Made by a program: the position numbers and the translations under genes
Sequence record: OZ035750.1
Source of the DNA: Gamaleyavirus NAN33P5
DNA: 64,000 nucleotides
Reading direction: 5' to 3' (one strand)
The notes under the pieces: model-generated
Databases searched by the model: none
Seen by the model: the letters and a program-made list of their open reading frames with translations, nothing else
What the model was told of the DNA's origin: nothing
Shown: positions 3,016 to 61,153 of the stretch, piece after piece
How positions within the stretch are numbered: the stretch's first letter is position 1
Layout: every line of letters starts with the position of its first letter

Positions 3016-5708
3016 ATTCTCATAACCCATTTAACACAGGCGGTAATGGTTGCCCTAATGACTTTCGGTCTGATGATCAGTTGGTTGACCGAATTATTGG
3101 AGATGCCTACCACGTAGTAAAGGAAGTTTACCTTGCACTTGGTAACCTTACCTACATTTATAACTACCTACAAAAGTATGGCCTGATTATTACTGTAGAT
3201 AGTGAGGAAGCAATCAAGGACATTCCACTCTCTATTGGGAAGTTTGCTCGTATTTATAATAAATCAGAGACGGCAGGTTACTACTTCACTGACTACCTTT
3301 ATGTAGATGATGATACTAGTGGTATTAAGCCTAACGAACCAGGTGCTACAGGTTCCTGGGTTAGTGCTAAAGCCACTGGTTCCAATGCCTCGTTTGTTCG
3401 TATTTGGAAATACGTTGGGGAGTATAATGGACAAACTATAATACAGTTACCTACTGATATTCCCATTATCGACGTTCAGACTATCTACGTCTCTGGTGTA
3501 CGCCAGAATAGTGGAGATGGTTTTGAGTACAACGAGGGTAGTAAAACCATCACCCTAGCTGATGAGCTTGAGATTGGTACACCGGTAACGGTTATACTCG
3601 GTATAACAGACCCTGACCTTGGTTTGGATATCTTCTCTATTCTGGCTAAAAGTGACGCAGCTTCCACTATAGGTGCTGTTAGTGAAACCAATGAACCATC
3701 TACCGTGGCTGACGAGTTAGTAGCAGCTCGTAATAAACTCAAAGCATTCGAGGATGCTTTAGCTAAGCCAGATGGCTACAAACTGGTCGGTAGTGTAGCG
3801 TCCTTTTCTTCTATGCGTTTGATGACTGGATTGGTCCCAGGGCAACGAGTAAAACTAGCTTCTTATTACTCAGGTGGTAACACAGGAGGAGGTGAGTTTA
3901 TTGTCAAGACTGGTTCAGCTGTGGATGATGCTGGTCATATTTGTGTACCTGCTTCTCAATCTGGTATTTACCTGGAACGTCGTACTAGTACTGTTAAGTT
4001 TAGCGACTATGGTATCACTACGGAGAGTAATAGCTCCGGCCCACGAGTTGACCAGTCTGACAAGGTACAGGCTGCTATTAACAGAGCTAAGAGCCTGAAG
4101 TATGTGTTGGATACTGAAATAGCTTCAGAAAACCACTACATTTATACTGGTATCTATGTAGAGAAAGGTATTGATATTACCGGGCTAAAAACTATTCGAG
4201 GTTGCTTCTCTTTACTGTTTGACTCTACTAAAATCGCTGGCTTATCAGCCCCTGGTTATTCTGACGTACAATGGGCTTTGGTTAACTTAAACGCTAAGTT
4301 TGACACTGCTGGTATCATCTTTGGTACTACTGTAGGTAACCAATCGTTCGATAGTATTGTGGTACGTGATGTATCTAACCGTGGTGCATCCTGCGGTGGG
4401 CAACTTCATGTTACATCCGGGACCATGGTATCTGGTGCATTATGTGCTACTGATGTTAATGGACCCGGCGTGTGGGTACTTGGTTCCTATGATTCTGTGA
4501 TTTCGGATATCCGTACAGTGAATTGCGGTAACGCTTTGTTGTGGGCTATCGATATTGCAGGTTACAGGGGTTCTCGCGTAGATAATACCAACTGCATGGT
4601 TATTAGTAGGATTGAGAGTCATGATTCACTAGACCGTGCTTTGCGTTGCAATGCAGACCTTTCAGACATTGGTGAGATTCACGTCGAGGCTACTGTAGTT
4701 GCTTCAAATGCTGTATCCAGTTCTGCAACTATTGCGGATAATGGCTGGGGATACGCAAACGTACTGCTTGCAGGATTAGGTACTACCTACGGTTCTGTAC
4801 GAGATTTACCTGTATCTGGTTCTATACCAGCCGTTTTTGAGCTAGTTGCAGATGATACCAGTATTGGTGAACTCAGCTTGCCTCGGTCTAGTCTGTCTAT
4901 TCACTACGCTTTTACTACACCAAGGGGGACTTTAAGTGCTGGTACTATAAACCTCTCCGGTGATGTTATTGTAAAGGATGGGGCTAATACCAATATAGAT
5001 GCACTGACTGTTACTGGGGCATCCTCTAAAATTACCAGCTCTTCTACTAACTTTAATGTTGGTATTTTAAGGGCTACTGGAGCTAATGCCTCATTTAATG
5101 GTATTGGTGGGCGTTACGGTAGACTTGATTGTGCTGTAGTTTTCCTGACCGGTAGTGATGTAACAAGAGGTTCTATCACCAATCTTACGTTGGGTGACCG
5201 CAATACATTAACTCAGGTTGCTGCTCAGACGCTTTTGGTTAATGGTACTCGAAACTATTTGTCTGATGGTTTTAGGGTTTCTGGTGTTAGTACTTTGAAT
5301 GGTATTAATAACGCTGCTACCAATGCGGTATTTGTTGGTGTTGTGACTCTTACAGACCCCTGGAAGTTTGATAAGGTATATATCAATGCTAACCTGGTTT
5401 ATACGGGCAATACCACATCAACCCTCTATGATGTTTCTTTCCAGGATGTGTTTATAGCAGGTGACTTAGTACTATCAGGAGCTTGCCGTATTCACGGTCA
5501 TAACCTTCGTGTTATCAACTTACGTATAGGCACTATGTCTGAAGGATTCATTGTATTGAATAACTGTGTAGTAGCAGGTGGAGTTGAGGGTAACTATGTA
5601 GATAGTTTTAATGTTCCTGCTATTGGGAGTATTACTCAGAACTTTACTACAGGTGTTCCTTACGTGTATACACCCACAGGATGGAAGCTACTTACAGCAG
5701 CAGCCTAA
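3006..5708 (+). CDS. tailspike/tail fibre protein with predicted right-handed beta-helix (possible depolymerase)
   Basis: 900 aa; Gly/Asn/Thr/Ser-rich periodic segments typical of pectate-lyase-like beta-helix; location in tail module. Confidence 0.55.
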   Translation: MDMNSHNPFNTGGNGCPNDFRSDDQLVDRIIGDAYHVVKEVYLALGNLTYIYNYLQKYGLIITVDSEEAIKDIPLSIGKFARIYNKSETAGYYFTDYLYVDDDTSGIKPNEPGATGSWVSAKATGSNASFVRIWKYVGEYNGQTIIQLPTDIPIIDVQTIYVSGVRQNSGDGFEYNEGSKTITLADELEIGTPVTVILGITDPDLGLDIFSILAKSDAASTIGAVSETNEPSTVADELVAARNKLKAFEDALAKPDGYKLVGSVASFSSMRLMTGLVPGQRVKLASYYSGGNTGGGEFIVKTGSAVDDAGHICVPASQSGIYLERRTSTVKFSDYGITTESNSSGPRVDQSDKVQAAINRAKSLKYVLDTEIASENHYIYTGIYVEKGIDITGLKTIRGCFSLLFDSTKIAGLSAPGYSDVQWALVNLNAKFDTAGIIFGTTVGNQSFDSIVVRDVSNRGASCGGQLHVTSGTMVSGALCATDVNGPGVWVLGSYDSVISDIRTVNCGNALLWAIDIAGYRGSRVDNTNCMVISRIESHDSLDRALRCNADLSDIGEIHVEATVVASNAVSSSATIADNGWGYANVLLAGLGTTYGSVRDLPVSGSIPAVFELVADDTSIGELSLPRSSLSIHYAFTTPRGTLSAGTINLSGDVIVKDGANTNIDALTVTGASSKITSSSTNFNVGILRATGANASFNGIGGRYGRLDCAVVFLTGSDVTRGSITNLTLGDRNTLTQVAAQTLLVNGTRNYLSDGFRVSGVSTLNGINNAATNAVFVGVVTLTDPWKFDKVYINANLVYTGNTTSTLYDVSFQDVFIAGDLVLSGACRIHGHNLRVINLRIGTMSEGFIVLNNCVVAGGVEGNYVDSFNVPAIGSITQNFTTGVPYVYTPTGWKLLTAAA

Positions 5709-5777
5709 CCTGGTAGCAAACACTGAACGACTAGCCCACTTAGGTGGGCTTTAAAACTACAACATGAGGACTAACCC

Positions 5778-7781
5778 ATGAATAAAATGTTCACACAGCC
5801 CACTGGACCAGTGGCTAAACAGACTAATAAACAAGCAATTGCTAGAATATTTTCCGTCAGGCAGGCAGATATAGGTTATATCAATGAGCATATACTAGTG
5901 GATGACTATACTCTGCTGTATGACCGTATCACAGAGGCTACGTGGTACAGAGGCACGGCAACGGGTACTCCACTCAGCTGGTCTGTAACTGGTTCCAAGC
6001 TTACTCTTACTACCACTACTGGTACTTATGAGCTAACTAAAGCTGCTGTTGTTACGGAAGCTTCTCTTAAGTCTCCTTCTGCTATGGAGTCTATTTATAC
6101 TCCTACGGGTGGTACACTGGCTTCTTTATTATTACGTACAGTTTCACCGGCAGAGTTTGGTTTAGTTAATGACCCAACCGGGGTTAATGCAGTTAAGAAT
6201 ACCAAAGCTGTTCAGGATGCGGTGCGTGAACTTAACCGTCTTGGTGGGGGCCGTCTTTTGTTCCCAACTGGGCAGTATACCTTTTGCTATGGCATTTGGT
6301 TATTCAGTAATATCCTTGTAGACCTTAATGGTAGTGTGTGTACATTTAAGGATGCTACCTTCCCATTACGTAGTCGTGCGTGTTTTGTCATGGGTTCTTC
6401 CTACGAGTCCAACCGAGAAAAAGCACTAGAGTTCTATGAAGATGGTTCTTTTGCTAACAATCCTAACCCTACTAATACAGCTTACGTTAACGTACCATTG
6501 GGTACTTTCTTACGTGACAATCCTAATAAGGTTGAGATTGAGAACTGCCATATCTATAACGGGCACTTAAAGGCTACATTCACATCTCCAACAGCTAATG
6601 GTGCATATGCAGTTAATATGGTCAATGCTCAGTATTGCTCAGCACACGACCTAACCTTTGATGGGTTTACAGAAGCTATTAACATGGGTTCGGATACAAA
6701 CAATGAAACCCCATCTTGTCATGGGTGCTCTGCTTATGACTTGGTTGTTTTATCCCCAGACCAGAATAAAACCTATTACTCCATTGGTTTTATTTCTAAC
6801 TCTACTAATTGTGCTATCTCCAGAGCACGGCAGATTGCACCATGTAAAGATGGTACAGAGAATGGTTCTGGCGTCGCTACTAACGTAGTAGAGGATTGCA
6901 TAATTGAGGATATCTTTATCCCATCCTTGGGTATTACTCAGTCTTCCGAGGGGGTACTACTTAATAATGCTAAAGGAAGTCTTGTCCGTAATATTTGTGT
7001 ACGTAATTGTAAGGTAGTTGTTGCTGTATTTTATGTAGGAACCAACTACATCAGTGCTGACAAATGGAACCATGTAACGGGGATTACTGGTAAGGGCACT
7101 ACTGCATTGATTGCAATTCGTGGTAAGTACACTACATTCTCTGACTTTGCTGCTGACTCTACTACCCCATATGAGATTTATTTTGGTACTTCCAACGGTT
7201 CCAATAACCGCATCGAACAAGAACCTAAGACCATCTATTTTACTGAGACGTCCACTATTAAGGCGTTCTGGTATTGCAACAATAACTACATTAAGGGGTG
7301 GGAGGTTAAGAGATTATACCTTAGACCTGCTCAAATATTACTGAATGATAAGGCGTCTGTATTCAGCTTCAATGCTAATAAGTCAGTAGCAATGAACGAT
7401 GATACGACCATTATGTTCTTGTATGACCTCCCACCAGGTATTAAAGCATTAAAGGCTGTTAAGTTGTTTGCCTACTACAACACTAACTCTGTGGCTAAAG
7501 GTAGTAGCATTACTATTGCTGTAAGGCGTATGGTAGCTATTGATGGTAACGCTAACGCTGAGCCATATGTAGAACCAGGTATTGCAGCTACTTCCAATGC
7601 TACCACTGATATGAAGGATATCTCTATGAGTGCTATACACTCAGATACAGTTAGTCCCGGTATGATTCGTATGGATGATACTACCAATGGACTGGCTAAT
7701 AATCTGGATGTACTCGTTACATTCTCCAATACAGCAAAAAACTCTTTGATGAAAGAGTGGGAAATAACTTACGTAGGATAA
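5778..7781 (+). CDS. second tailspike/tail fibre protein (beta-helix-like)
   Basis: 667 aa; N/T/S/G-rich repetitive segments; follows the first spike gene. Confidence 0.5.
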   Translation: MNKMFTQPTGPVAKQTNKQAIARIFSVRQADIGYINEHILVDDYTLLYDRITEATWYRGTATGTPLSWSVTGSKLTLTTTTGTYELTKAAVVTEASLKSPSAMESIYTPTGGTLASLLLRTVSPAEFGLVNDPTGVNAVKNTKAVQDAVRELNRLGGGRLLFPTGQYTFCYGIWLFSNILVDLNGSVCTFKDATFPLRSRACFVMGSSYESNREKALEFYEDGSFANNPNPTNTAYVNVPLGTFLRDNPNKVEIENCHIYNGHLKATFTSPTANGAYAVNMVNAQYCSAHDLTFDGFTEAINMGSDTNNETPSCHGCSAYDLVVLSPDQNKTYYSIGFISNSTNCAISRARQIAPCKDGTENGSGVATNVVEDCIIEDIFIPSLGITQSSEGVLLNNAKGSLVRNICVRNCKVVVAVFYVGTNYISADKWNHVTGITGKGTTALIAIRGKYTTFSDFAADSTTPYEIYFGTSNGSNNRIEQEPKTIYFTETSTIKAFWYCNNNYIKGWEVKRLYLRPAQILLNDKASVFSFNANKSVAMNDDTTIMFLYDLPPGIKALKAVKLFAYYNTNSVAKGSSITIAVRRMVAIDGNANAEPYVEPGIAATSNATTDMKDISMSAIHSDTVSPGMIRMDDTTNGLANNLDVLVTFSNTAKNSLMKEWEITYVG

Positions 7782-7784
7782 GCT

Positions 7785-8027
7785 ATGGATAACTCAGCAA
7801 GCCGTGATGTGATTCAGGTCTACCGTGCATTGTATGATTACCTGGTTAACCAGGAAAACCTAAATGCAGAGCAATCTCTTGTTAAAAGCAGACTTGAACA
7901 GGACCAGGGGATAATCTGTGATAGTTCCCTGGATAGTAAAGTATTTGCTATTCAGACCAGTGTGGCAAATGCCACTACAGACAAAGAACGGGATAGCTAC
8001 CTAGAAGCATTAGTTAGTATCCTGTAA
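7785..8027 (+). CDS. hypothetical protein
   Basis: 80-aa ORF, start 4 nt after spike gene stop, followed by terminator. Confidence 0.3.
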   Translation: MDNSASRDVIQVYRALYDYLVNQENLNAEQSLVKSRLEQDQGIICDSSLDSKVFAIQTSVANATTDKERDSYLEALVSIL

Positions 8028-8031
8028 ACAA

Positions 8032-8058
8032 AGCCCCCATAAAGGGGGCTTTTTCTTT
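8032..8058 (+). terminator. rho-independent terminator
   Basis: stem gccccc / gggggc, loop ataaa, followed by tttttcttt. Confidence 0.75.
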
Positions 8059-8123
8059 CTTCCTTACTCATACTTAAATCAGTATTATCATTCAGTCAGA
8101 CTCTTCTGATACGTCCCGAATGG

Positions 8124-8486
8124 GTGTTATTAAAAAACATTAAGGACTTTCTCATGAGCGATGAATCGACTTCGGTTCTTCTTGCCCGATTGGAGGAAAG
8201 ACTGGAAACACTATTTAAGAACCAAGAAAAAGAAGAACGCTCCAAAGATAGACTGGAGCAAACTCTATCTGGTTTGAGGGAGTCTGTTCAGCAAATGGAA
8301 GGCAGACTAAAGAACGTAGAGGATAGCCTTGCCAAGTCTGAACCCACCATAGAAGAGTTCATCACTATTAAACACAAAGTTGCTGGTGCTGGAATTTTTG
8401 GTAAGTGGGTATGGGCTGGAGCAGGTGCAATTATTGGCATATTGGCTGCTGCAAGACGGGAGATATTCGCATGGTTTGTAGGCTAA
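8124..8486 (+). CDS. coiled-coil protein with C-terminal transmembrane segment (possible lysis-associated/antiholin-like)
   Basis: 120 aa; charged helical N-terminal part, C-terminal 'AGAGIFGKWVWAGAGAIIGILAAA' hydrophobic segment; first gene of the lysis cluster. Confidence 0.35.
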   Translation: MLLKNIKDFLMSDESTSVLLARLEERLETLFKNQEKEERSKDRLEQTLSGLRESVQQMEGRLKNVEDSLAKSEPTIEEFITIKHKVAGAGIFGKWVWAGAGAIIGILAAARREIFAWFVG

Positions 8487-8731
8487 AAAGAAAGATAGGA
8501 CTAGTACCGAATTGGAAGAAGGCCTGGAAGTGGGCATCTGTTCAGATTAGTGCGTTTGGGTTAATTTTGTTTTCTGCTGTAGATATTATCCAACCAATGC
8601 TGACGGGATTGCCTCGTCACATCCTTGAAGATATTCCACATGGTTCCAGCATTACAATCGCACTGTTTGCCCTAAACATTGTAGGCAGACTAATACGATT
8701 CCATCCAAAGGATGATTCTCATGAAAGCTAA
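8471..8731 (+). CDS. putative holin (two transmembrane segments)
   Basis: Internal Met of ORF 8405..8731 ('MVCRL...'); two hydrophobic helices ('ISAFGLILFSAVDII', 'ITIALFALNIVGRLI'), charged C-terminus; stop overlaps endolysin start. Confidence 0.45.
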   Translation: MVCRLKRKIGLVPNWKKAWKWASVQISAFGLILFSAVDIIQPMLTGLPRHILEDIPHGSSITIALFALNIVGRLIRFHPKDDSHES

Positions 8732-9356
8732 ACAGAAACTTGCTGCAAAAGGTGGTGCAGTGGGAGGAGTTGTCGCTGCTATTCTGGGGGCAGTGTTCTA
8801 TATGGAAGGAGGGTATGTAAACAATCCTCGTGACCCAGGTGGGGAAACTAATCATGGTATTACTCAATCAGTAGCTAAGTCTCATAAAGAAGTTCTGGCT
8901 ACTGAGTATGGTTGGGATGGTTCCATGAAGGGTTTATCTAAAGAGATGGCTGCTGAGATATACATTGATGACTATGTACTTAAGCCTAACTTCGTAGCCT
9001 TCGCTGATATATCTCCTGCTGTAACACATAAACTGGTTGATGCTGGTGTTAATACCGGTGTAACCAGACCAGCTAAGTGGTTGCAGCAATCTCTTAATGA
9101 AATGTCCCGTGATGGCAAAGACTACCCTAAAGTACAAGTTGATGGTAAAGTCGGTGCAGGTACTATTAATGCATATAAAGCATTACAGAAAAAACGAGGC
9201 AAAGTTGCAGCATGTCAGGTAATGATTAAGTTACTTGATGCTAAACAACTGAACCACTACACCTCATTGAACATGCCAGACTTTACGTATGGTTGGGTAG
9301 CTAACCGAATCGGTAATGTGCCACTGGAGGCATGTAATGAAGATGCTAATCTCTAA
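8712..9356 (+). CDS. endolysin, GH108-type muramidase with peptidoglycan-binding domain and SAR-like N-terminal segment
   Basis: 'EGGYVNNPRDPGGETNHGIT' GH108 signature after a Gly/Ala-rich weakly hydrophobic N-terminus ('GGAVGGVVAAILGAVFYM'); N4 gp61-like position. Confidence 0.8.
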   Translation: MILMKAKQKLAAKGGAVGGVVAAILGAVFYMEGGYVNNPRDPGGETNHGITQSVAKSHKEVLATEYGWDGSMKGLSKEMAAEIYIDDYVLKPNFVAFADISPAVTHKLVDAGVNTGVTRPAKWLQQSLNEMSRDGKDYPKVQVDGKVGAGTINAYKALQKKRGKVAACQVMIKLLDAKQLNHYTSLNMPDFTYGWVANRIGNVPLEACNEDANL

Positions 9357-9837
9357 AGGTTGGCCTTATCTTCTGGTGGTGGTCCTTGGGGCCACCATTT
9401 ACTTTTGGGGTAATTCCAATGGACAGTCTACTGTTCAAAAGAAGTGGGATGCCCAAAAGGTTGAAGACCTGAAGGCAACGCAAAAACTACAGGACAAATA
9501 CAATGCTCTCCAAAGAAACCATAGTTATGAAGTCGGGCTACTCACTTCCCGGTTGCAGACGGCTGAGAGTAATTACGCAAGCGAGCTTGCTCGCGTTAGC
9601 AGTGATTACGACAGCCGGATGCAACAGTCTGAAAGACGAGCATCGGTATATAAACGTCAAGCCGAAGCCGGAACCCTTGAGTGCAGAAGTCTTGCAAGCC
9701 ATGCAGCCAGACTCGACAACAGTCTTGAAGAAGGCAGACGTTTGGTTGAAGAACTCCGGGCAACTGTTAGACTCCGTGACAACCAACTAATTGAGTTGGG
9801 TAAGCAAATTCAGGCTGACCGTAAACTTTTTGAATAG
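9316..9837 (+). CDS. i-spanin (Rz-like)
   Basis: 173 aa; N-terminal TM ('[17 protein letters not shown]') then coiled-coil-like charged periplasmic domain; immediately after endolysin. Confidence 0.6.
9527..9790 (+). CDS. o-spanin (Rz1-like lipoprotein) embedded in +1 frame of Rz
   Basis: Signal peptide with lipobox 'ITTAGC', short Pro-rich mature peptide; entirely nested in the Rz gene. Confidence 0.55.
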   Translation: MKSGYSLPGCRRLRVITQASLLALAVITTAGCNSLKDEHRYINVKPKPEPLSAEVLQAMQPDSTTVLKKADVWLKNSGQLLDSVTTN

Positions 9838-9845
9838 GATTAACT

Positions 9846-12116
9846 ATGGAACACCAAGACACTTTTAAGCCTTTACCAGACCCGGCTCAATCAGAGAAAC
9901 TAACGGACTGGAAGAAGGAACCAAGTATCCAATTACTGAAGGGTGATTTGGAATCAGCTAAACCTGCTCACGAAGCAATCATGGCACAGATTCGTGAGTG
10001 GAATGACCTGATGGAAGTCAAGGGTAAAGCTAAACCTCCAAAGGTTAAAGGACGTTCTCAAGTCCAACCTAGACTGGTTCGCCGTCAGGCAGAGTGGCGA
10101 TATGCTCCATTGTCTGAGCCGTTCCTCTCATCTAATAAACTCTTTAAAGTAACCCCGGTTACTTTTGAAGATGAGTTAGCTGCAAGACAGAATGAGTTAG
10201 TTCTTAACTACCAATTTCGTACCCAGCTTAATAAAGTGAAGCTGGTAGATGATTACGTACACAGTGTCGTAGATGACGGTACTGGTATTGCTCGTATTGG
10301 CTGGGAACGTAAGACCGTTAAAATTAAAACAGAAACACCGGTCTTCCAGTTGTATCCAATTGAGAACCAGGAACAGGCAGATGTTCTTCAACAGGCTTTA
10401 CAGCTTCAGGCAGAGAATCCTCGTGAGTATGATGAAACAATGCCGGAAGATATTAAGGAAGCTGTTAACTACTTCAATGAAACTGGAGAAGCTACTTATG
10501 CAATCCAGACTGGGATTACTGAAGTAGAAGTAGAGAAGGCACTGGTTAACAGACCTACCGTTGAAATGCTTAACCCCAATAACGTGGTTATTGACCCTAG
10601 TTGTAATGGTGATTTGGATAAGGCTCTGTATGCAGTTATCTCATTTGAGACATGCAAAGCAGACCTCATGAAGAACAAGGACCGTTATCACAATTTAGAT
10701 AAGATTGACTGGGAAAGTTCTAGCCCTATGACTGACCCAGACCATGAAAGTAAAACTCCAAGCGACTTCCAGTTTAAGGATGCACTTCGTAAGAAAGTTG
10801 TTGCCTATGAGTACTGGGGATTCTACGACATCAATGATGATGGCTCTCTGGAACCAATTGTTGCTACCTGGATTGGTTCTACCCTTATTCGTATGGAGAA
10901 GAACCCATTCCCGGATGGTAAGTTACCTTTAGTAGTTGTTCCTTACATGCCCCGTAAACGCGAACTCTTTGGTGAAGCTGATGCTGAACTATTAGGTGAT
11001 AACCAAGCAATCCTTGGTGCAACTATGCGTGGGATGATTGACCTGTTAGGTCGAAGTGCAAATGGTCAACGTGGTTACCCTAAAGGGATGCTGGATACAC
11101 TGAACCGTCGTCGATATGACGATGGACAAGATTATGAATACAACCCAATGCAGGGTAATCCTAGTCAGGCCATTATGGAACATAAGTTCCCTGAGTTACC
11201 TCAGTCGGCAATAGTAATGACCCAGATGCAAAACCAGGAAGCAGAATCCCTAACTGGTGTTAAAGCATTCTCTGGTGGTGTAACTGGTTCAGCTTACGGA
11301 GATGTGGCTGCTGGTATTCGTGGTGCACTTGACGCAGCATCTAAACGTGAGATGGCAATCCTTCGTCGATTAGCTAAGGGTATGGCAGATATTGGTACTA
11401 AGATTTGTGCAATGAATGCCGTGTTCTTATCGGAGAAAGAAGTAGTACGTATTACTAACGAGCAGTATGTAGAGATTAACCGTGAAGACCTTAAAGGTAA
11501 CTTCGATATTGAGGTTGATATTAATACTGCTGAAATTGATAACCAGAAGTCTCAGGACTTGAGCTTCATGGTTCAAACACTGGGTAATACGGTTGACCAG
11601 ACTATTACGTTATCTCTTGTAGCTAAGATTGCAGAACTTAAACGTATGCCTGACCTGGCTCATGAGTTACGTACTTGGCAACCACAGCCAGACCCTATGG
11701 AAGAACAGCTTAAGCAATTGGCAATTCAGAAAGCACAGCTTGAGAATGAAGAGCTGCAAAGTAAGATTGCACTCAATATGGCTAAGGCTAAAGAGGCAGC
11801 TTCTGCTGGTGACCTTAAAGACCTGGATTATCTGGAACAGGAATCTGGTACTAAACATGCTCGTGATATGGAAAAACAAAAAGCACAATCTCAAGGAAAC
11901 CAGAACCTTCAAATAACTAAGGCATTGACAACACCTATTAAAGAAGGTGAAACTACCCCCAACATATCTGCTGCTGTTGGATATAATACATTGACTGACG
12001 GGAACTCTATACCAGAACGTGATTTAGCTGCTCAGCAAGACCCGGCTTATTCACTCAGTTCCCAATACTATGACCCTAGCCAAGACCCAGCATCGGCTCT
12101 TGGCATGAACCTGTAA
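9846..12116 (+). CDS. portal protein
   Basis: 756 aa; size and position (between lysis genes and scaffold/capsid) match N4 gp59-like portal; acidic C-terminus. Confidence 0.65.
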
Positions 12117-12129
12117 GGCAGACCTTCAC

Positions 12130-12474
12130 ATGAGTAAAGAATCAACAATCGCTGGACTGGAACATCGACTGGAAGCTGCTAAAGGTGCAGTTGCACATGC
12201 AGAAGATGTACGTAAACTTCTGGAGAATCCACTGTTCCGTAAAGTAATTCTTCGCCAGTTCTGTGTGGAAGATTGCGCACGTTACGTGCAAGAGTCTGGT
12301 GACCCACTGCTTGAAGCTAATAACCGTGCAGATGCATTGAACATGGCTCAAGCTGCTGGTCACTTACGTCGTTGGCTCGACCTCGCTATTCGTATGGGTG
12401 AAAACGAAGCTGACGTTATTCTACAGGTAGAAGAAGAACTCGACGCAGTTCGTGCTGAACCTGAAGACGAATAA
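12130..12474 (+). CDS. hypothetical head-module protein
   Basis: 114-aa ORF between portal and scaffold-like gene. Confidence 0.35.
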   Translation: MSKESTIAGLEHRLEAAKGAVAHAEDVRKLLENPLFRKVILRQFCVEDCARYVQESGDPLLEANNRADALNMAQAAGHLRRWLDLAIRMGENEADVILQVEEELDAVRAEPEDE

Positions 12475-56303: not shown

Positions 56304-56810
56304 TTATTTTGAAGGTCTAGCAGCTACTGGTTTGTTTTCCTGGTTATTGTACTTGCCAGTATATGTGGCAGGTTCTTGAACCAGATGAAATAATACTTGA
56401 GCTATCCCAGCACCAGCCGGGATATGCAGCTTCTTACGACCATGATAGACCAGTTCGAGGGTAAGATACCCTTTCCATCCTGGTTCTATTACAGTATTAA
56501 ATACAGATAATGCACGTCTTGCCCATGTGGATTTATCGTGAACGATAGCTACACAGGATGGAGACATGTTGAACTTCTCAATTGCTGAAGCCAATGCGAA
56601 TTTACCGAAATGGCGTGATACTTGTTTTCCATCAACGATTTTCACCATTGGAATCAACCCAAATAAGCGATAGAAGGTGATGTCTTGTTTGATACGAATA
56701 TCATATCCAGCTTCGCCCAACCCATAGCTTACACCATGCTCGGATACCTTACGGTCTGGGACATCCAGCAATTGAGATGAACGGTATAGAGAATTACCAT
56801 TAACAACCAT
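56304..56810 (-). CDS. dCTP deaminase / dUTPase-superfamily enzyme
   Basis: 168 aa; 'GYDIR' and 'GWKGYLTLELVYHG...IAQVLF' resemble dCTP deaminase motifs. Confidence 0.7.
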   Translation of the reverse strand: MVVNGNSLYRSSQLLDVPDRKVSEHGVSYGLGEAGYDIRIKQDITFYRLFGLIPMVKIVDGKQVSRHFGKFALASAIEKFNMSPSCVAIVHDKSTWARRALSVFNTVIEPGWKGYLTLELVYHGRKKLHIPAGAGIAQVLFHLVQEPATYTGKYNNQENKPVAARPSK

Positions 56811-57985
56811 TATTTCATTCCTTTAGGGATATGAACTACCTCCCCAAAAGGTACGGTAGCATTAGGATTATTCAGAACACACCAGATGATAGGGATATCA
56901 AATGGTAATTCTTCCATAGGACGAACATACATATCGGAGAATATGATTGCAGCGGTTGGCTTATTCTTAATAATCCATTCACGCACTGGTTCAAGGTTTG
57001 TACCACCACGACCAGTAATCTTAATCTCTTCAAAAGTATCTTCTTCAGTGATGTCCATCTCTTCTTGGATAATATCGTCGAAGGTAATTAAGGACATCTT
57101 CTTAGGATTGAACTGGCTCTTAACGTAGGCAACCTCTGAGTTAAAACGCAGAGAGTCAGCACTACTAATAGAACCAGATACATCCTCAAAGTAAGCTAAG
57201 TGTCGTAAGCGTCCTTCATCATCTTCCAGAGAAGGTAGATAGATGTCAGTGAAACGACGGTTAGGTCTGGCCCATGTATAGTGTGAGTCATCAATGTCGG
57301 TAAAGAAGTTCAGTAGGACTTCCTGCCAAGGAACCACTGGTTTAAGGAATTGGGTAATAACCTCTTCCATACGACCAGCACCCTTACCAGGCATCATTCC
57401 ACCAGCCATCTTCTGGCTTTGCATTGCACGTACTACGTTGTTGACAACAGCACCCTGGGACTGCCCCGAAGAGGGAGCTTTCATGTCGCCAGCAAGACCT
57501 GCTCCAGCACCCCCTGACGGCTTCTGCCTTTTCTGAGGGTTCTTCATCAGGTCATCGTAGATGTCTTCTTCAACCCATCCTTTATATTGAGGGTCTTTGC
57601 AAATGCCTTTATCGATACCAGTGAACTTGTAACCATCTTCCTCTAACTGAAGATTAATGAAGTGATCACATGCCTGGTTCCAGACTTCCGGGTCACGGCT
57701 TCCACAACGGATGCCATGGAGATATGCCACATGCCAGAGTTCGTGCATTAGTACTGTTTCTCTTGCATCGGGACACATCCAGACAAAGAAGTCTGGGTTG
57801 AAATGGAGTTCTATCCCATCAGTACATGCAGTGGGGCAGTCTTCACGTTTCCATGAGAACTTAAGACTACACAGCAATGAACCAAAAAATGCAGCAGAGC
57901 GTCCAAGGAATGCATTAGCCTGAATACGGTCATACTCACGCATGAGTTGTTCATCACTAAGTGTGTGCTGAGGTATCTGGTTCAT
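56810..57985 (-). CDS. VWA-like/putative metallopeptidase (DUF2201-like) protein, partner of MoxR-type ATPase
   Basis: 391 aa; HExxH 'HELWHVAYLHG' in N-terminal half; immediately downstream of split AAA+ ATPase gene. Confidence 0.55.
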   Translation of the reverse strand: MNQIPQHTLSDEQLMREYDRIQANAFLGRSAAFFGSLLCSLKFSWKREDCPTACTDGIELHFNPDFFVWMCPDARETVLMHELWHVAYLHGIRCGSRDPEVWNQACDHFINLQLEEDGYKFTGIDKGICKDPQYKGWVEEDIYDDLMKNPQKRQKPSGGAGAGLAGDMKAPSSGQSQGAVVNNVVRAMQSQKMAGGMMPGKGAGRMEEVITQFLKPVVPWQEVLLNFFTDIDDSHYTWARPNRRFTDIYLPSLEDDEGRLRHLAYFEDVSGSISSADSLRFNSEVAYVKSQFNPKKMSLITFDDIIQEEMDITEEDTFEEIKITGRGGTNLEPVREWIIKNKPTAAIIFSDMYVRPMEELPFDIPIIWCVLNNPNATVPFGEVVHIPKGMK

Positions 57986-57992
57986 GTTGTGA

Positions 57993-58398
57993 TTATCCGT
58001 GAATGTAACGAGAGATGTTGGCAGCAGCCTTACGCCATTCAGGGGTAGCCTGAATTTCTGGTAATGCTTTACCTACTGTACGGAAGTACAGAATCTTATG
58101 GGTGAACGTTTTAAAGCGTTCAATATACTGAAGTACATCAGCGAAGTTATCTTCAGTAGTCTTGTTAGCCAAATGGTTAACGGTAGCCCAACACAGGTTA
58201 TTATCTTCCGGTAGTACACAGCCCAAAGGGTCTTTAACTACCTTCTCAATCGTAATCATACGATTGTATACCTGAGTGAACTGAACAAATTCTGTAGCTT
58301 TACCGGCAGTAACGTGGCCTGCATAGTAGATAGAATCTTCATCAGGCAGAGCACCTTCCGGTCGGTTCTTAAGGTCTTTGTTAACAAAGTCCCAAGTC
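57993..58398 (-). CDS. MoxR-like AAA+ ATPase, exon 3 (C-terminal part)
   Basis: Frame continues from inferred 3' splice site (about 58399); ORF-track fragment 57993..58421 starts at a TTG inside the intron. Confidence 0.5.
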
Positions 58399-59261
58399 GT
58401 GATATTCGACGTAGTTCGCAAGACTACGCCCGTTCTCTTATGAACTGCTGCATGTCACCATGCAGACTAGACTATATCAACACCCTTAGCATTACCTGTA
58501 GGGTGGCTACCATTTCGAGCATCATTAGCTTATGCTCTACTCCCTCCCGGGATAGTCGTTGGACATTTATGGAAGTCAGAAATTACGTTTACGTCTAGTA
58601 TCCCCAATTGAGTCCAGATAGGCATCTACGGCTTTAGCAGCAGCTACCTCATCTTTAAACTGTTTGTAGAATACTACCTTGTAATTATCTTTAACCTTGG
58701 CTTCGTAATAAGTGTAAATTTTATCTTTATACTTACTACGACGTATGTGCACATTATGGTACACAGACTTACCTGGTTTAGGGGCTAGCCCAGTTTTATG
58801 AGCATGGAGATTATTGTCTTGTGTGGTGCATGGTTCCAGGTTGTCTTCATGGTTATTCTCCTTATTACCATCTAAGTGGTTAACAGGATCACCATACTTA
58901 AAGCCTGGTTTAAATGCTGCACAAACGAGTTGATGAATAGTTTTCTTATGGGTCTTCCCATCTTTGTACATAGAGGCATACAGATAGCCTAATCGGTTCT
59001 TGTTAAGTGCCCTGATAAGGGGCTTAACTTCTCTGTACTTATTTACAGATTGGCGTGACTCATGCTTACGGTATTTACCTGTATTAGATACTTGGTATAA
59101 ACCTTCAAATTCAACAACATCTTTCCAAATCTCACTCATGCTGACTCCCAATTTAGTAACGGATTGACTTTTACATATTACCTTTAGGCAACAGAAAGTA
59201 AAGTGTTTCCCGTTTTAGGCAGCTTTAGACAGGGAATTACTCCCCTGAATCGCAGTGTGTT
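58399..59261 (-). mobile_element. group-I-like intron B carrying HNH homing endonuclease ORF (boundaries approximate, 5' end uncertain)
   Basis: Interrupts ATPase ORF; contains HNH ORF 58576..59151 and a conserved about 150-nt core shared with intron A. Confidence 0.5.
58576..59151 (-). CDS. intron-encoded HNH homing endonuclease (NUMOD4-like N-terminus)
   Basis: 191 aa; 'EIWKDVVEFEGLYQVSNTGK' and 'HQLVCAAF...VNHLDGNKENNHEDNLE' HNH motif; TTG start in track. Confidence 0.75.
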   Translation of the reverse strand: MGVSMSEIWKDVVEFEGLYQVSNTGKYRKHESRQSVNKYREVKPLIRALNKNRLGYLYASMYKDGKTHKKTIHQLVCAAFKPGFKYGDPVNHLDGNKENNHEDNLEPCTTQDNNLHAHKTGLAPKPGKSVYHNVHIRRSKYKDKIYTYYEAKVKDNYKVVFYKQFKDEVAAAKAVDAYLDSIGDTRRKRNF

Positions 59262-59596
59262 TACGAGGACAACAGAATGTCTTGTTCTTATGGGCAGGGT
59301 CGAAGTCGTGCAGATAGCCAGGGTTAGCATGTAAGAATGCAACCAGACGCTCATCCCATTCTTGTGGAATCATTACGTCTTCAACAAAGATGTCGAAGTT
59401 AAGTTCCATTTCGAAGTGGACAACACGAGACTGCATTGCAGTACCCAGTGGGTTAACGATGGCTCGGTCAGTAGCTTTGTTACCGGCACAGATAATCATC
59501 ACATTAGGGTGAAGTTTTTTCTGTCCAGTCATACGGTCTAGAATCAGTTTGTATGCAGCAGCTACTACTTCTTTCTTAGCTGAGTTGAATTCGTCG
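59262..59596 (-). CDS. MoxR-like AAA+ ATPase, exon 2 (Walker B / sensor region)
   Basis: Begins 'DEFNSAKK...MIICAGNKATDRAIVNPLGTAMQSRVVHFEM'; joins exon 1 to give 'GWLLFLDEFNSA' Walker B; 3' boundary approximate. Confidence 0.5.
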
Positions 59597-60478
59597 CATT
59601 ATCTTCACATTAGTTCGCAACTACTAATGCCGTCAGTACACTCAGTGAATACTGACTGCTGCATGTCACCATGCAGAGGAGACTATATCAAAGCCCTATT
59701 GCTAGGGCTGTTACCGTTTCGAGTGCCATTGGCTTGCACCCTACTCTACTCACTTCCACATTTCTGTGTGTTTTCGATAGTCGTTTGGCGTTTAAATGAA
59801 ATTGGTACTGTACCCAATCTGTGTAAGATTGTTGTTAGTTACGTAGGAGTCATAGGCTTTGGCAGCCTCTTCCTCTGTTTTGTAACGTCCCAAACCAATA
59901 GATTTCTTGTTAACCCTTATATGGGCACACCATCTTTGTCTTTGCTCACTCCAGGATACACCTACGTATTTGGAGGAGCCTCCACGATTTTTGTTACTAG
60001 CGTTGGCATGTCTGTTTGACAATAATCCAGTATCCCAAGCATGTTTAATATTTTGGGACTGGGTACACCATTCCAGGTTACTCTCGTGGTTATTAAGAGG
60101 GTTTCCATCTATATGATTAATAACTGGATAGTTATTGGGGTTTGGTACAAAGGCTATGCCTACCAGACGATGAACTTGATATTTGTACACTTTACTATTC
60201 ATGTACAGGTTCACGCAGTAGTACCCTTTGTTATTAAGATACGGTTTTATATGTGTCCTATTTTTGTATTTATACTTTCCTTCTTTTCGGCGTACTACAC
60301 CAAAGTTGGAAACTTCATACGGTAAGTCGGGCACATCTTTCCAAATTTCATTATTTAGCACAGGATTGTCTCCAATTGATTAAAACTCAAGTATACACCT
60401 GAGCCAACCATATTAGAAGAGGTTCCCTGTTTAGGTAACTTTCGACATGAGATTGCTCTCATGAAGCCCCGTCAGTTA
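59597..60478 (-). mobile_element. group-I-like intron A carrying HNH homing endonuclease ORF
   Basis: Inserted exactly within the Walker B codons; exon 1 ends in U, inferred intron ends in G; contains HNH ORF 59792..60361 and the conserved core 59611..59788. Confidence 0.55.
59792..60361 (-). CDS. intron-encoded HNH homing endonuclease with AP2-like domain
   Basis: 189 aa; 'EIWKDVPDLPYEVSNFGVVRR', 'HRLVGIAF...INHIDGNPLNNHESNLEW' HNH motif and 'YVGVSW...RWCAHIRVNKKSIGLGRYKTEEEAAKAYD' AP2-like domain. Confidence 0.8.
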   Translation of the reverse strand: MLNNEIWKDVPDLPYEVSNFGVVRRKEGKYKYKNRTHIKPYLNNKGYYCVNLYMNSKVYKYQVHRLVGIAFVPNPNNYPVINHIDGNPLNNHESNLEWCTQSQNIKHAWDTGLLSNRHANASNKNRGGSSKYVGVSWSEQRQRWCAHIRVNKKSIGLGRYKTEEEAAKAYDSYVTNNNLTQIGYSTNFI

Positions 60479-60792
60479 AGGAACAAGAGCCAGCCATTAT
60501 AACCTTCTGGTACTTCGTCACCCTCGATAGGGAATAAGTCAGCGAAAGGGATAAACTCTGCACGATCACCATTACGGAATGGTAGACCAGACAAGTCTTC
60601 CGGGGCAGAAGTAGACAGACGATGGTCAATCAGCTTCATGCCAAATTCTTCTGCAACAGAACGAATAATTGCAGACTTACCCATGCCAGGTGATGAAGTC
60701 AGGAACGGTACGTTACCTGCTTGCAAGGCACGGATAATAAAGTTACGGGCTTGGCGTGTATTACATACAGTCAAGGAGTCAATGCTCGCCAT
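60479..60792 (-). CDS. MoxR-like AAA+ ATPase, exon 1 (Walker A)
   Basis: 'FLTSSPGMGKSAIIRSVAEEFGMKLIDHRL' P-loop; ORF terminates two codons after 'GWLLFL' where the intron begins. Confidence 0.55.
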
Positions 60793-60826: not shown

Positions 60827-61153
60827 TTAAGATTTAACGCAGGGATACGCTGTATCAATCGCTAACAGAACCATGTCTGACGATATTTTTACTGCATTTA
60901 CCTTTCGGTCATACAGAATAATAGATGCCACTCTGTCAAAAATGGGTCCTAACTTCATATCGTCAGGTACACAATTCTTTCCTGCTTCCACTCCCATAGT
61001 AACCATGCCCATGAAGTAACCCTGGTTCACAAAGTTTGCATTATTGGCTTTGTAATCAGCAGCAGCTTCCAACAAGGTTGCACGACTAGATGCCTGAGCA
61101 CCGAATGAAAGAACTGATAGAGCTACAAGAACAACAGCAATTAAAGTTTTCAT
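60827..61153 (-). CDS. secreted/periplasmic small protein
   Basis: 108 aa; signal peptide 'MKTLIAVVLVALSVLSFGAQA'. Confidence 0.4.
   Translation of the reverse strand: MKTLIAVVLVALSVLSFGAQASSRATLLEAAADYKANNANFVNQGYFMGMVTMGVEAGKNCVPDDMKLGPIFDRVASIILYDRKVNAVKISSDMVLLAIDTAYPCVKS

Follow-up and report, generated by a model that had tools for sequence, protein, structure and literature searches.

A gp24/gp25-type AAA+ ATPase and zincin-like VWA protein, candidates for a two-protein grip-and-cut machine, in a Gamaleyavirus genome

The locus considered here raises the question of what a conserved pair of phage genes, one encoding an AAA+ ATPase and the other a protein with an HExxH motif and a VWA domain, does for the element that carries it. 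The pair lies in a 64,000-nt stretch of Gamaleyavirus NAN33P5 (sequence record OZ035750.1), hereafter the window, which on sequence grounds belongs to Gamaleyavirus, i.e. the G7C-like, N4-like phages of the Schitoviridae. Matches to the 4.6-kb region were obtained in 103 phage records, the best being Gamaleyavirus genomes with 92-97 % DNA identity, and 38 % of this query, namely both insertions described below, is absent from most of these records. A preliminary description had placed a split AAA+ ATPase gene followed by that of a 391-amino-acid (aa) HExxH protein at positions 56810-60792, and both genes were indeed found there, on the minus strand. They are recognizable as the G7C-group orthologues of N4 gp24 and gp25, which have already been annotated and discussed, so that their novelty as such is low: in the PhAPEC7 record the orthologues are described as resembling N4 gp24 and gp25, and published lists count both among the core genes of N4-like phages, with unknown function (PMC7650795; PMC4193335; PMC2784036). 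New here are the anatomy of the introns at catalytic codons, an intein in homologues of the partner protein and the plasmid-borne homologues.

The question was approached by identifying the genes, comparing domain folds, assessing how far motifs are conserved, placing the exon/intron boundaries and recording where the two genes occur together in phages and on plasmids. On balance, we lean towards reading the pair as an N4 gp24/gp25-type two-protein grip-and-cut machine, whose most likely target is a non-virion protein.

The AAA+ ATPase and its zincin-like VWA partner

Joined in silico, the three exons of the ATPase gene amount to 1053 nt, i.e. 350 codons and a stop, and match gp24 of PhAPEC7 at 344 of 351 positions; the spliced product is 98 % identical to uninterrupted orthologues and matches phrog_1297 (E 4.9e-134), which, like the Pfam scores of the partner given below and the 103 matching phage records, lies far outside chance expectation. 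The Walker A motif P35-G-M-G-K39-S40 lies at bases 60690-60673, and G38-K39-S40, D106-E107, N144, R162 and R216 (in CCPR) are unchanged across 23 sequences with identities as low as 50 %, as is a DHRLSTSxPxDLxGLP stretch downstream of Walker A. Judging from their positions, N144, R162 and R216 probably serve as sensor 1, arginine finger and sensor 2, respectively; the plasmid homologues have SPR in place of CCPR around the sensor-2 arginine. An AlphaFold model, made from a 98 %-identical uninterrupted orthologue and not from the spliced window sequence (predicted local distance difference test, pLDDT, 83.6), has hairpins at residues 72-79 and 131-133, i.e. beta-hairpin inserts in helix 2 and before sensor 1 as in the helix-2-insert clade, and a helical C-terminal domain at 237-348. 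The nearest folds are dynein, midasin and the MoxR proteins CbbQ and NorQ, the last two being the closest solved stand-alone MoxR proteins.

The earlier designation of the ATPase as 'MoxR-like' was upheld by fold, motifs and the VWA partner gene, but not by the curated MoxR sequence models. We therefore call the protein MoxR-like on the grounds of fold, motifs and gene context, and not a member by curated sequence model. Generic PF00004 alone passes its Pfam cutoff (28.7 versus 21.2 bits), and an NCBIfam search with the ATPase gave nothing usable; the homologue on plasmid pSYSA passes AAA_5 (25.3) and is named a MoxR family ATPase by PGAP.

[quoted passage not shown] The stretch HELWHVAYLHG comprises residues 81-91 (bases 57745-57713), with HExxH proper (H81, E82, H85) at 57745-57731. 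Conservation was counted over clusters of 50 % identity, in their 150 best representatives: within HExxH, H81 and H85 are kept in 143 each and E82 in 138, other residues of the N-terminal domain are similarly retained (H90 in 139, D107 in 146, E140 in 142), and in the MIDAS, D268, S270 and S272 are found in all 150, T329 in 148 and D351 in 149. Relatives of the 391-aa protein numbered 21,550 in a profile search of 1.84 billion cluster representatives. For the N-terminal domain alone, DUF2201_N was the sole Pfam family matched at E 10. The VWA domain matches NorD and BchD by fold, and the conserved W...RPNRR...YLPS segment just before it is predicted to be disordered.

Although labelled 'HNH endonuclease', phrog_1314 covers the whole DUF2201_N + DUF2201 protein (E 8.6e-144), and because of this label many GenBank/RefSeq phage records call the gp25 gene 'HNH endonuclease' or 'homing endonuclease'. 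In phage U1G, the gp25 orthologue is present as two overlapping open reading frames (ORFs), both named 'HNH endonuclease', and gives a tblastn match in two pieces; this split is a frameshift or sequencing error.

Ring formation, docking, ATP-driven remodelling and proteolysis, as well as the kind of target, are what we infer from the fold matches and from the analogy with CbbQ/CbbO, NorQ/NorD and midasin, i.e. established knowledge. As an AAA+ protein of the MoxR/dynein/midasin type, gp24 presumably forms a hexameric ring, onto which gp25 would dock through its VWA domain as adaptor and effector. The metal site of the MIDAS would then grip an acidic residue of the target protein, ATP hydrolysis by gp24 would remodel or pull this target, and the N-terminal HExxH zincin domain of gp25 would cleave it. 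The target would most likely be a non-virion protein that any mobile element meets on entry or during replication, for instance one of the host or a complex bound to DNA, and less likely a capsid or tail component.

The same fold matches, CbbQ and NorQ for the ATPase and NorD and BchD for the VWA domain, would also suit an enzyme activase, or a chaperone for cofactor insertion, comparable to NorQ/NorD, CbbQ/CbbO or the chelatases, which would mature a phage enzyme encoded in the operon, for instance one of nucleotide metabolism or RNA polymerase II (RNAP II), with HExxH serving in metal handling and not in proteolysis. dCTP deaminase and ThyX are encoded in the operon, and the Asteriusvirus pair lies 2 kb from a thymidylate synthase gene, both in line with such a function. 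However, the plasmid cassettes lack enzyme partners of this kind, and pure metal binding would not need the HExxH glutamate, the zincin general base, which is retained at the frequency given above (138/150). The window pair differs from CbbQ/CbbO, NorQ/NorD and midasin in that the ATPase has a 125-residue helical C-terminal domain of its own and falls short of the curated MoxR models, and in that the VWA partner carries a zincin domain; we know of no description of such a domain on the VWA partner of the named activases, which also counts against this explanation. Taken together, we hold an activase function to be very improbable.

Relatives in phages and on plasmids, and the probable target

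As in N4, where gp24 encodes the AAA+ ATPase and gp25 the vWFA protein, the two genes follow each other in the same order, with the RNAP II/gp17 side upstream and the dCTP deaminase gene gp26 downstream. The gp25-type protein shares 61 % identity with an Enquatrovirus homologue (AlfredRasser) and 94-99 % with proteins of Gamaleyavirus. Relatives of gp25 and gp24 are present in 679 and 806 phage records, respectively, from the same lineages, i.e. Schitoviridae, Vequintavirinae, Asteriusvirus, Wroclawvirus and Atu_ph07. The two are direct neighbours in Asteriusvirus, and a distance of about 3-4 kb separates them in the one Vequintavirus and the one Wroclawvirus examined. Across the Schitoviridae, identity is about 50 % to diverse N4-like relatives and about 25-30 % in the most distant ones.

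Around 100 large plasmids likewise carry an ATPase and zincin-VWA cassette. The two genes are adjacent on Rhodococcus pREL1 and on Synechocystis pSYSA, in the latter case next to toxin-antitoxin and DUF262 genes, and are separated by a 300-aa gene on a conjugative plasmid from Burkholderia and a plasmid from Rhodovastum, with type IV secretion system (T4SS), toprim or ParB genes nearby. Compared with gp24, the ATPases of the Burkholderia plasmid and of pSYSA show 27-30 % identity, the former aligning through the C-terminal domain and the latter up to residue 271. A pattern scan of bacterial genomes gave mostly phage contigs binned into metagenome-assembled genomes, hence the cellular context was taken from plasmids. 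Because the cassette occurs on plasmids without virion genes, we favour, with modest confidence, a non-virion target, either a host protein or something bound to DNA. Together with the linkage to nucleotide metabolism in the middle operon, in which gp24 and gp25 would be transcribed along with such genes, its presence on virion-less elements argues against a purely structural role.

The protein encoded between the two plasmid genes is 32 % identical between Burkholderia and Rhodovastum and may act as a third component or else as a substrate; it belongs to no Pfam family and has no counterpart in the window. Kinship with the 'anti-sigma factor' beside a Vequintavirus homologue was ruled out, as the two are unrelated.

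The most explicit published proposal points in another direction. Iyer et al. (2021) proposed that the MoxR and metallopeptidase-vWA pair of group 2.2 jumbo phages acts in virion assembly with proteolytic processing (PMC7824862). That pair has the same two-protein architecture, and its Asteriusvirus and Vequintavirus homologues fall into the same Pfam families, but identity is only about 22-28 % and the jumbo-phage proteins are longer (467-486 aa). Their proposal drew on the analogy with a further viral MoxR-VWA pair, p618 (MoxR) and p892 (VWA) of Acidianus two-tailed virus, which has a chaperone role as cited in PMC7824862 and PMC7911831 and, according to the former, is needed for tail development; it is likened here by description and not by sequence, belongs to an archaeal virus and is without a peptidase domain. 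By extension, gp24 and gp25 might be a chaperone-protease for virion assembly or maturation, folding or assembling the tail, fibres or the packaged giant RNA polymerase while the peptidase trims. Such a role would accord with the genes annotated 'structural protein' that flank the pair in Asteriusvirus A4, and with the Hoc-like virion gene in the same middle region of N4-like phages. It does not fit the plasmid-borne homologues, however, since the plasmid cassettes described above have no virion genes nearby. Moreover, the phage pair appears co-transcribed and translationally linked with dCTP deaminase and not with late structural genes, and the list of virion proteins that PMC4193335 gives for N4-like phages contains neither gp24 nor gp25. 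We therefore consider a function in virion assembly unlikely.

The plasmid neighbourhoods also bring to mind a conflict module, i.e. an accessory system against competing mobile elements or host defences with the peptidase as effector, since published conflict systems include MoxR-vWA systems whose vWA protein is fused to effector peptidases (PMC7159879). The pSYSA cassette sits among toxin-antitoxin and DUF262 genes, and an Imm superinfection-immunity gene is the last of the phage operon. Against this, PADLOC returned only insignificant hits for the ATPase and none for gp25, and the pair belongs to the strongly conserved core gene set of every N4-like phage, which is atypical for conflict genes. 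An accessory conflict function thus seems quite improbable.

Going beyond the grip-and-cut reading itself, it may be speculated that gp24 and gp25 represent the phage branch of a mobile-element cassette, spanning N4-like, rV5-like and jumbo phages as well as conjugative and other large plasmids, which would act as an ATP-driven grip-and-cut protease on a host protein or DNA-bound complex and so let foreign DNA establish or replicate. We put this forward tentatively, as a possibility that is rather doubtful.

Several observations weigh against a grip-and-cut machine with a non-virion target. With regard to the ATPase, the scores with the curated MoxR models remain below cutoff (AAA_5 17.7 bits, cutoff 22; bpMoxR 13.7, cutoff 27). 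With regard to the peptidase, three residues, H90, D107 and E140, compete as candidates for the third zinc ligand; the only fold match of the N-terminal domain is weak, i.e. to the minimal zincin (minigluzincin) selecase with E 0.058 and probability 0.93; and searches of PDB sequences with gp25 and with the N-domain profile gave no solved relative. With a pLDDT of 75.8, the gp25 model is moderately good, and it leaves out residues 227-256, a conserved stretch. The plasmid contexts vary, with T4SS genes, toxin-antitoxin genes and arsenic resistance represented by one case each, and universal conservation in the Schitoviridae is unusual for host-directed or anti-defence genes, which are normally variable. 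Finally, full-text searches of the literature found no experiment on any member of the gp24/gp25 family; a CRISPRi-ART paper and a phage transposon-mutagenesis preprint likewise contain nothing on N4 gp24/gp25.

Two further records touch on where these genes reside. The best plasmid match to gp25 (27.8 % identity, full length) is NZ_CP110465.1, a 75-kb Acinetobacter baumannii 'plasmid' whose size suits the genome of an N4-like phage better than a plasmid. In Mesorhizobium yinganensis CN2-181, an N4-like block with the order gp24-like ATPase, gp25-like gene, dCTP deaminase and thymidylate synthase is found at 4854-12279 of a segment covering 434,974-448,110 of the 727-kb contig2, embedded in bacterial sequence; between its gp25-like gene and that of the window identity is 45 %, close to the 48-51 % in free N4-like phages of other hosts, and a 296-kb Roseococcus contig was also noted. 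N4-like phages are regarded as strictly lytic, and the block may represent either an N4-like element that has integrated or a chimera of the assembly.

Introns in the ATPase gene and an intein in gp25 homologues

In contrast to N4 gp24 and to nearly all deposited relatives, which are uninterrupted, the ATPase gene of the window is split by two insertions, whose boundaries were set from the ORF list, the uninterrupted gp24 of PhAPEC7 and the DNA itself. By sequence features, these are two group I introns, each mobile independently of the other and carrying an HNH homing endonuclease, located at the Walker B and putative sensor-2 codons. The junctions read CCU/UAAC...AAUG/CGAC for intron 1 and CGU/AAAC...CACG/ACU for intron 2; the last base is U in both 5' exons and G in both introns, and once the introns are taken out the reading frame is exactly restored. 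An alternative 5' splice site of intron 2, placed after CCT as in pYD6-A, a distant N4-like phage, was rejected because it breaks the frame; the ATPase intron of pYD6-A lies 3 nt upstream of the intron 2 site (CP/R). The endonuclease ORFs (NUMOD4 + HNH_3, with AP2 in the first) are intact and their domains score above threshold; for intron 2, the mechanical ORF starts at TTG 59151 versus ATG 59139. Intact ATPase would accordingly be made only after RNA splicing, presumably self-splicing.

In Rfam, both introns score below the RF00028 gathering score of 50 (intron 2, 35.6 bits, E 1.8e-6; intron 1, 19.0 bits, E 0.17) because of the inserted ORFs and divergent 5' halves. Their 3' cores were compared in a small sample of five related introns, i.e. 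both window introns, the pYD6-A ATPase intron, an Aeromonas phage intron and a Klebsiella podovirus DNA polymerase intron: P7 and P9 are invariant, and P8 and P9.x pairs are kept through two-sided changes (8 pairs). The P7-P8-P9 core is common to the window introns, the pYD6-A ATPase intron and the introns in DNA polymerase genes of Autographiviridae. An ORF-bearing group I intron with an HNH homing endonuclease at catalytic-motif codons of a conserved phage gene is also known from the Pf-WMP3 DNA polymerase (PMC3428280); here, by contrast, two paralogous introns reside in one 1-kb gene.

Among 50,697 phage records, intron 1 was found only in U1G (95.4 % identical), and intron 2 was nowhere present in full. 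Public assemblies hold one intron-2-only allele and at least six 70-74-kb contigs with both introns, and hence all four alleles exist among close relatives: no intron, intron 1 only (U1G), intron 2 only, and both. In addition, a free-standing HNH gene lies between the ATPase and gp25 genes in G7C (gp24.1) and in one double-intron metagenome contig, which therefore has three endonuclease genes in a 4-kb locus. The free-standing gene and the introns together mark this locus as a hotspot for homing endonucleases.

Homologues of the partner gene have been invaded as well. In two distant gp25 homologues, an intein with Hint and Intein_splicing domains (P0244 residues 96-248; P0250 residues 112-415) sits exactly at A105/C106 of the invariant N-x-A-C-D motif in the zincin domain. 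Thus, selfish elements mark catalytic-looking sites in both partners, and the earlier suggestion that targeting by selfish introns points to a conserved and important gene finds support in the introns at Walker B and sensor 2 and in this intein.

Layout of the operon and significance of the pair

The coordinates of the features are given in Table 1. Owing to the introns, automatic annotation fragments the ATPase gene, which is listed as three separate ORFs (60792-60472, 59532-59215 and 58421-57993). Its stop is separated by a spacer of 7 nt from the ATG of the 391-aa gene, whose own stop overlaps the dCTP deaminase start in TAATG. Two hairpins bracket the operon, which runs from small ORFs through the ATPase, 391-aa and dCTP deaminase genes to the Imm-like gene, and terminators are annotated in the PhAPEC7 record at positions matching both. 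A scan for sigma-70 promoters found fewer sites than in shuffled sequence and is uninformative for N4-type middle promoters. The 'phage replication region' of the preliminary description was not borne out, as the surroundings are a middle-gene operon for RNAP II and nucleotide metabolism, not for replication proper.

Table 1. Positions of genes, exons, introns, domains and hairpins at the gp24/gp25-type locus of the window
Feature	Position	Strand	Size or extent	Content
ATPase gene, three exons and two introns	60792-57993	minus	350 aa	
ATPase exon 1	60792-60479	minus	residues 1-105	Walker A; helix-2 region motif DHRLSTSAPEDLSGLP; LLFL of Walker B at end
Predicted group I intron 1	60478-59597	minus	882 nt	L105/D106, inside Walker B hhhh/DE
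Intron 1 homing endonuclease gene	60361-59792	minus	189 aa, GTG start	NUMOD4 + HNH_3 + AP2
ATPase exon 2	59596-59263	minus	residues 106-216	D106-E107; putative sensor-1 N144; R162; putative sensor-2 R216 (last codon)
Predicted group I intron 2	59262-58398	minus	865 nt	R216/T217, CCPR/TW
Intron 2 homing endonuclease gene	59139-58576	minus	187 aa, from ATG at 59139	NUMOD4 + HNH_3
ATPase exon 3	58397-57993	minus	residues 217-350 and stop	remaining lid; family-specific all-helical C-terminal domain
gp25-type protein gene	57985-56810	minus	391 aa	N-terminal zincin-like domain; C-terminal VWA domain
DUF2201_N region	57937-57227	minus	residues 17-253	HExxH; H90; N103-x-A-C106-D107; E140; W238...RPNRR...YLPS
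VWA-like domain	57199-56828	minus	residues 263-386	MIDAS D268-x-S270-G-S272 (57184-57170); T329; D351
dCTP deaminase gene	56810-56304	minus		same operon; ATG overlaps gp25-type stop
Terminator-like hairpin upstream of operon	62189-62171	minus		right after Hoc-like gene
Terminator-like hairpin ending operon	55676-55654	minus		after Imm-like gene

Directly upstream of the ATPase gene, 60827-61153 (minus strand) encodes a 108-aa protein with an N-terminal signal peptide, which is named 'Tai4' in some relatives and, according to the notes of the PhAPEC7 record, is not found in N4.

For the biology of these phages, the pair matters as part of the core gene set of a family that includes therapy candidates, and the gp25-type family, with its about 21,500 cluster representatives, has neither a solved structure nor an assay. 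The plasmid-borne cassette narrows the possible functions, and the introns and the intein indicate which residues matter. If the view of gp24/gp25 as the phage branch of a mobile-element cassette were true, the pair would be the sole universally conserved host-directed effector of the Schitoviridae and would represent a new class of AAA+-coupled zincin protease.

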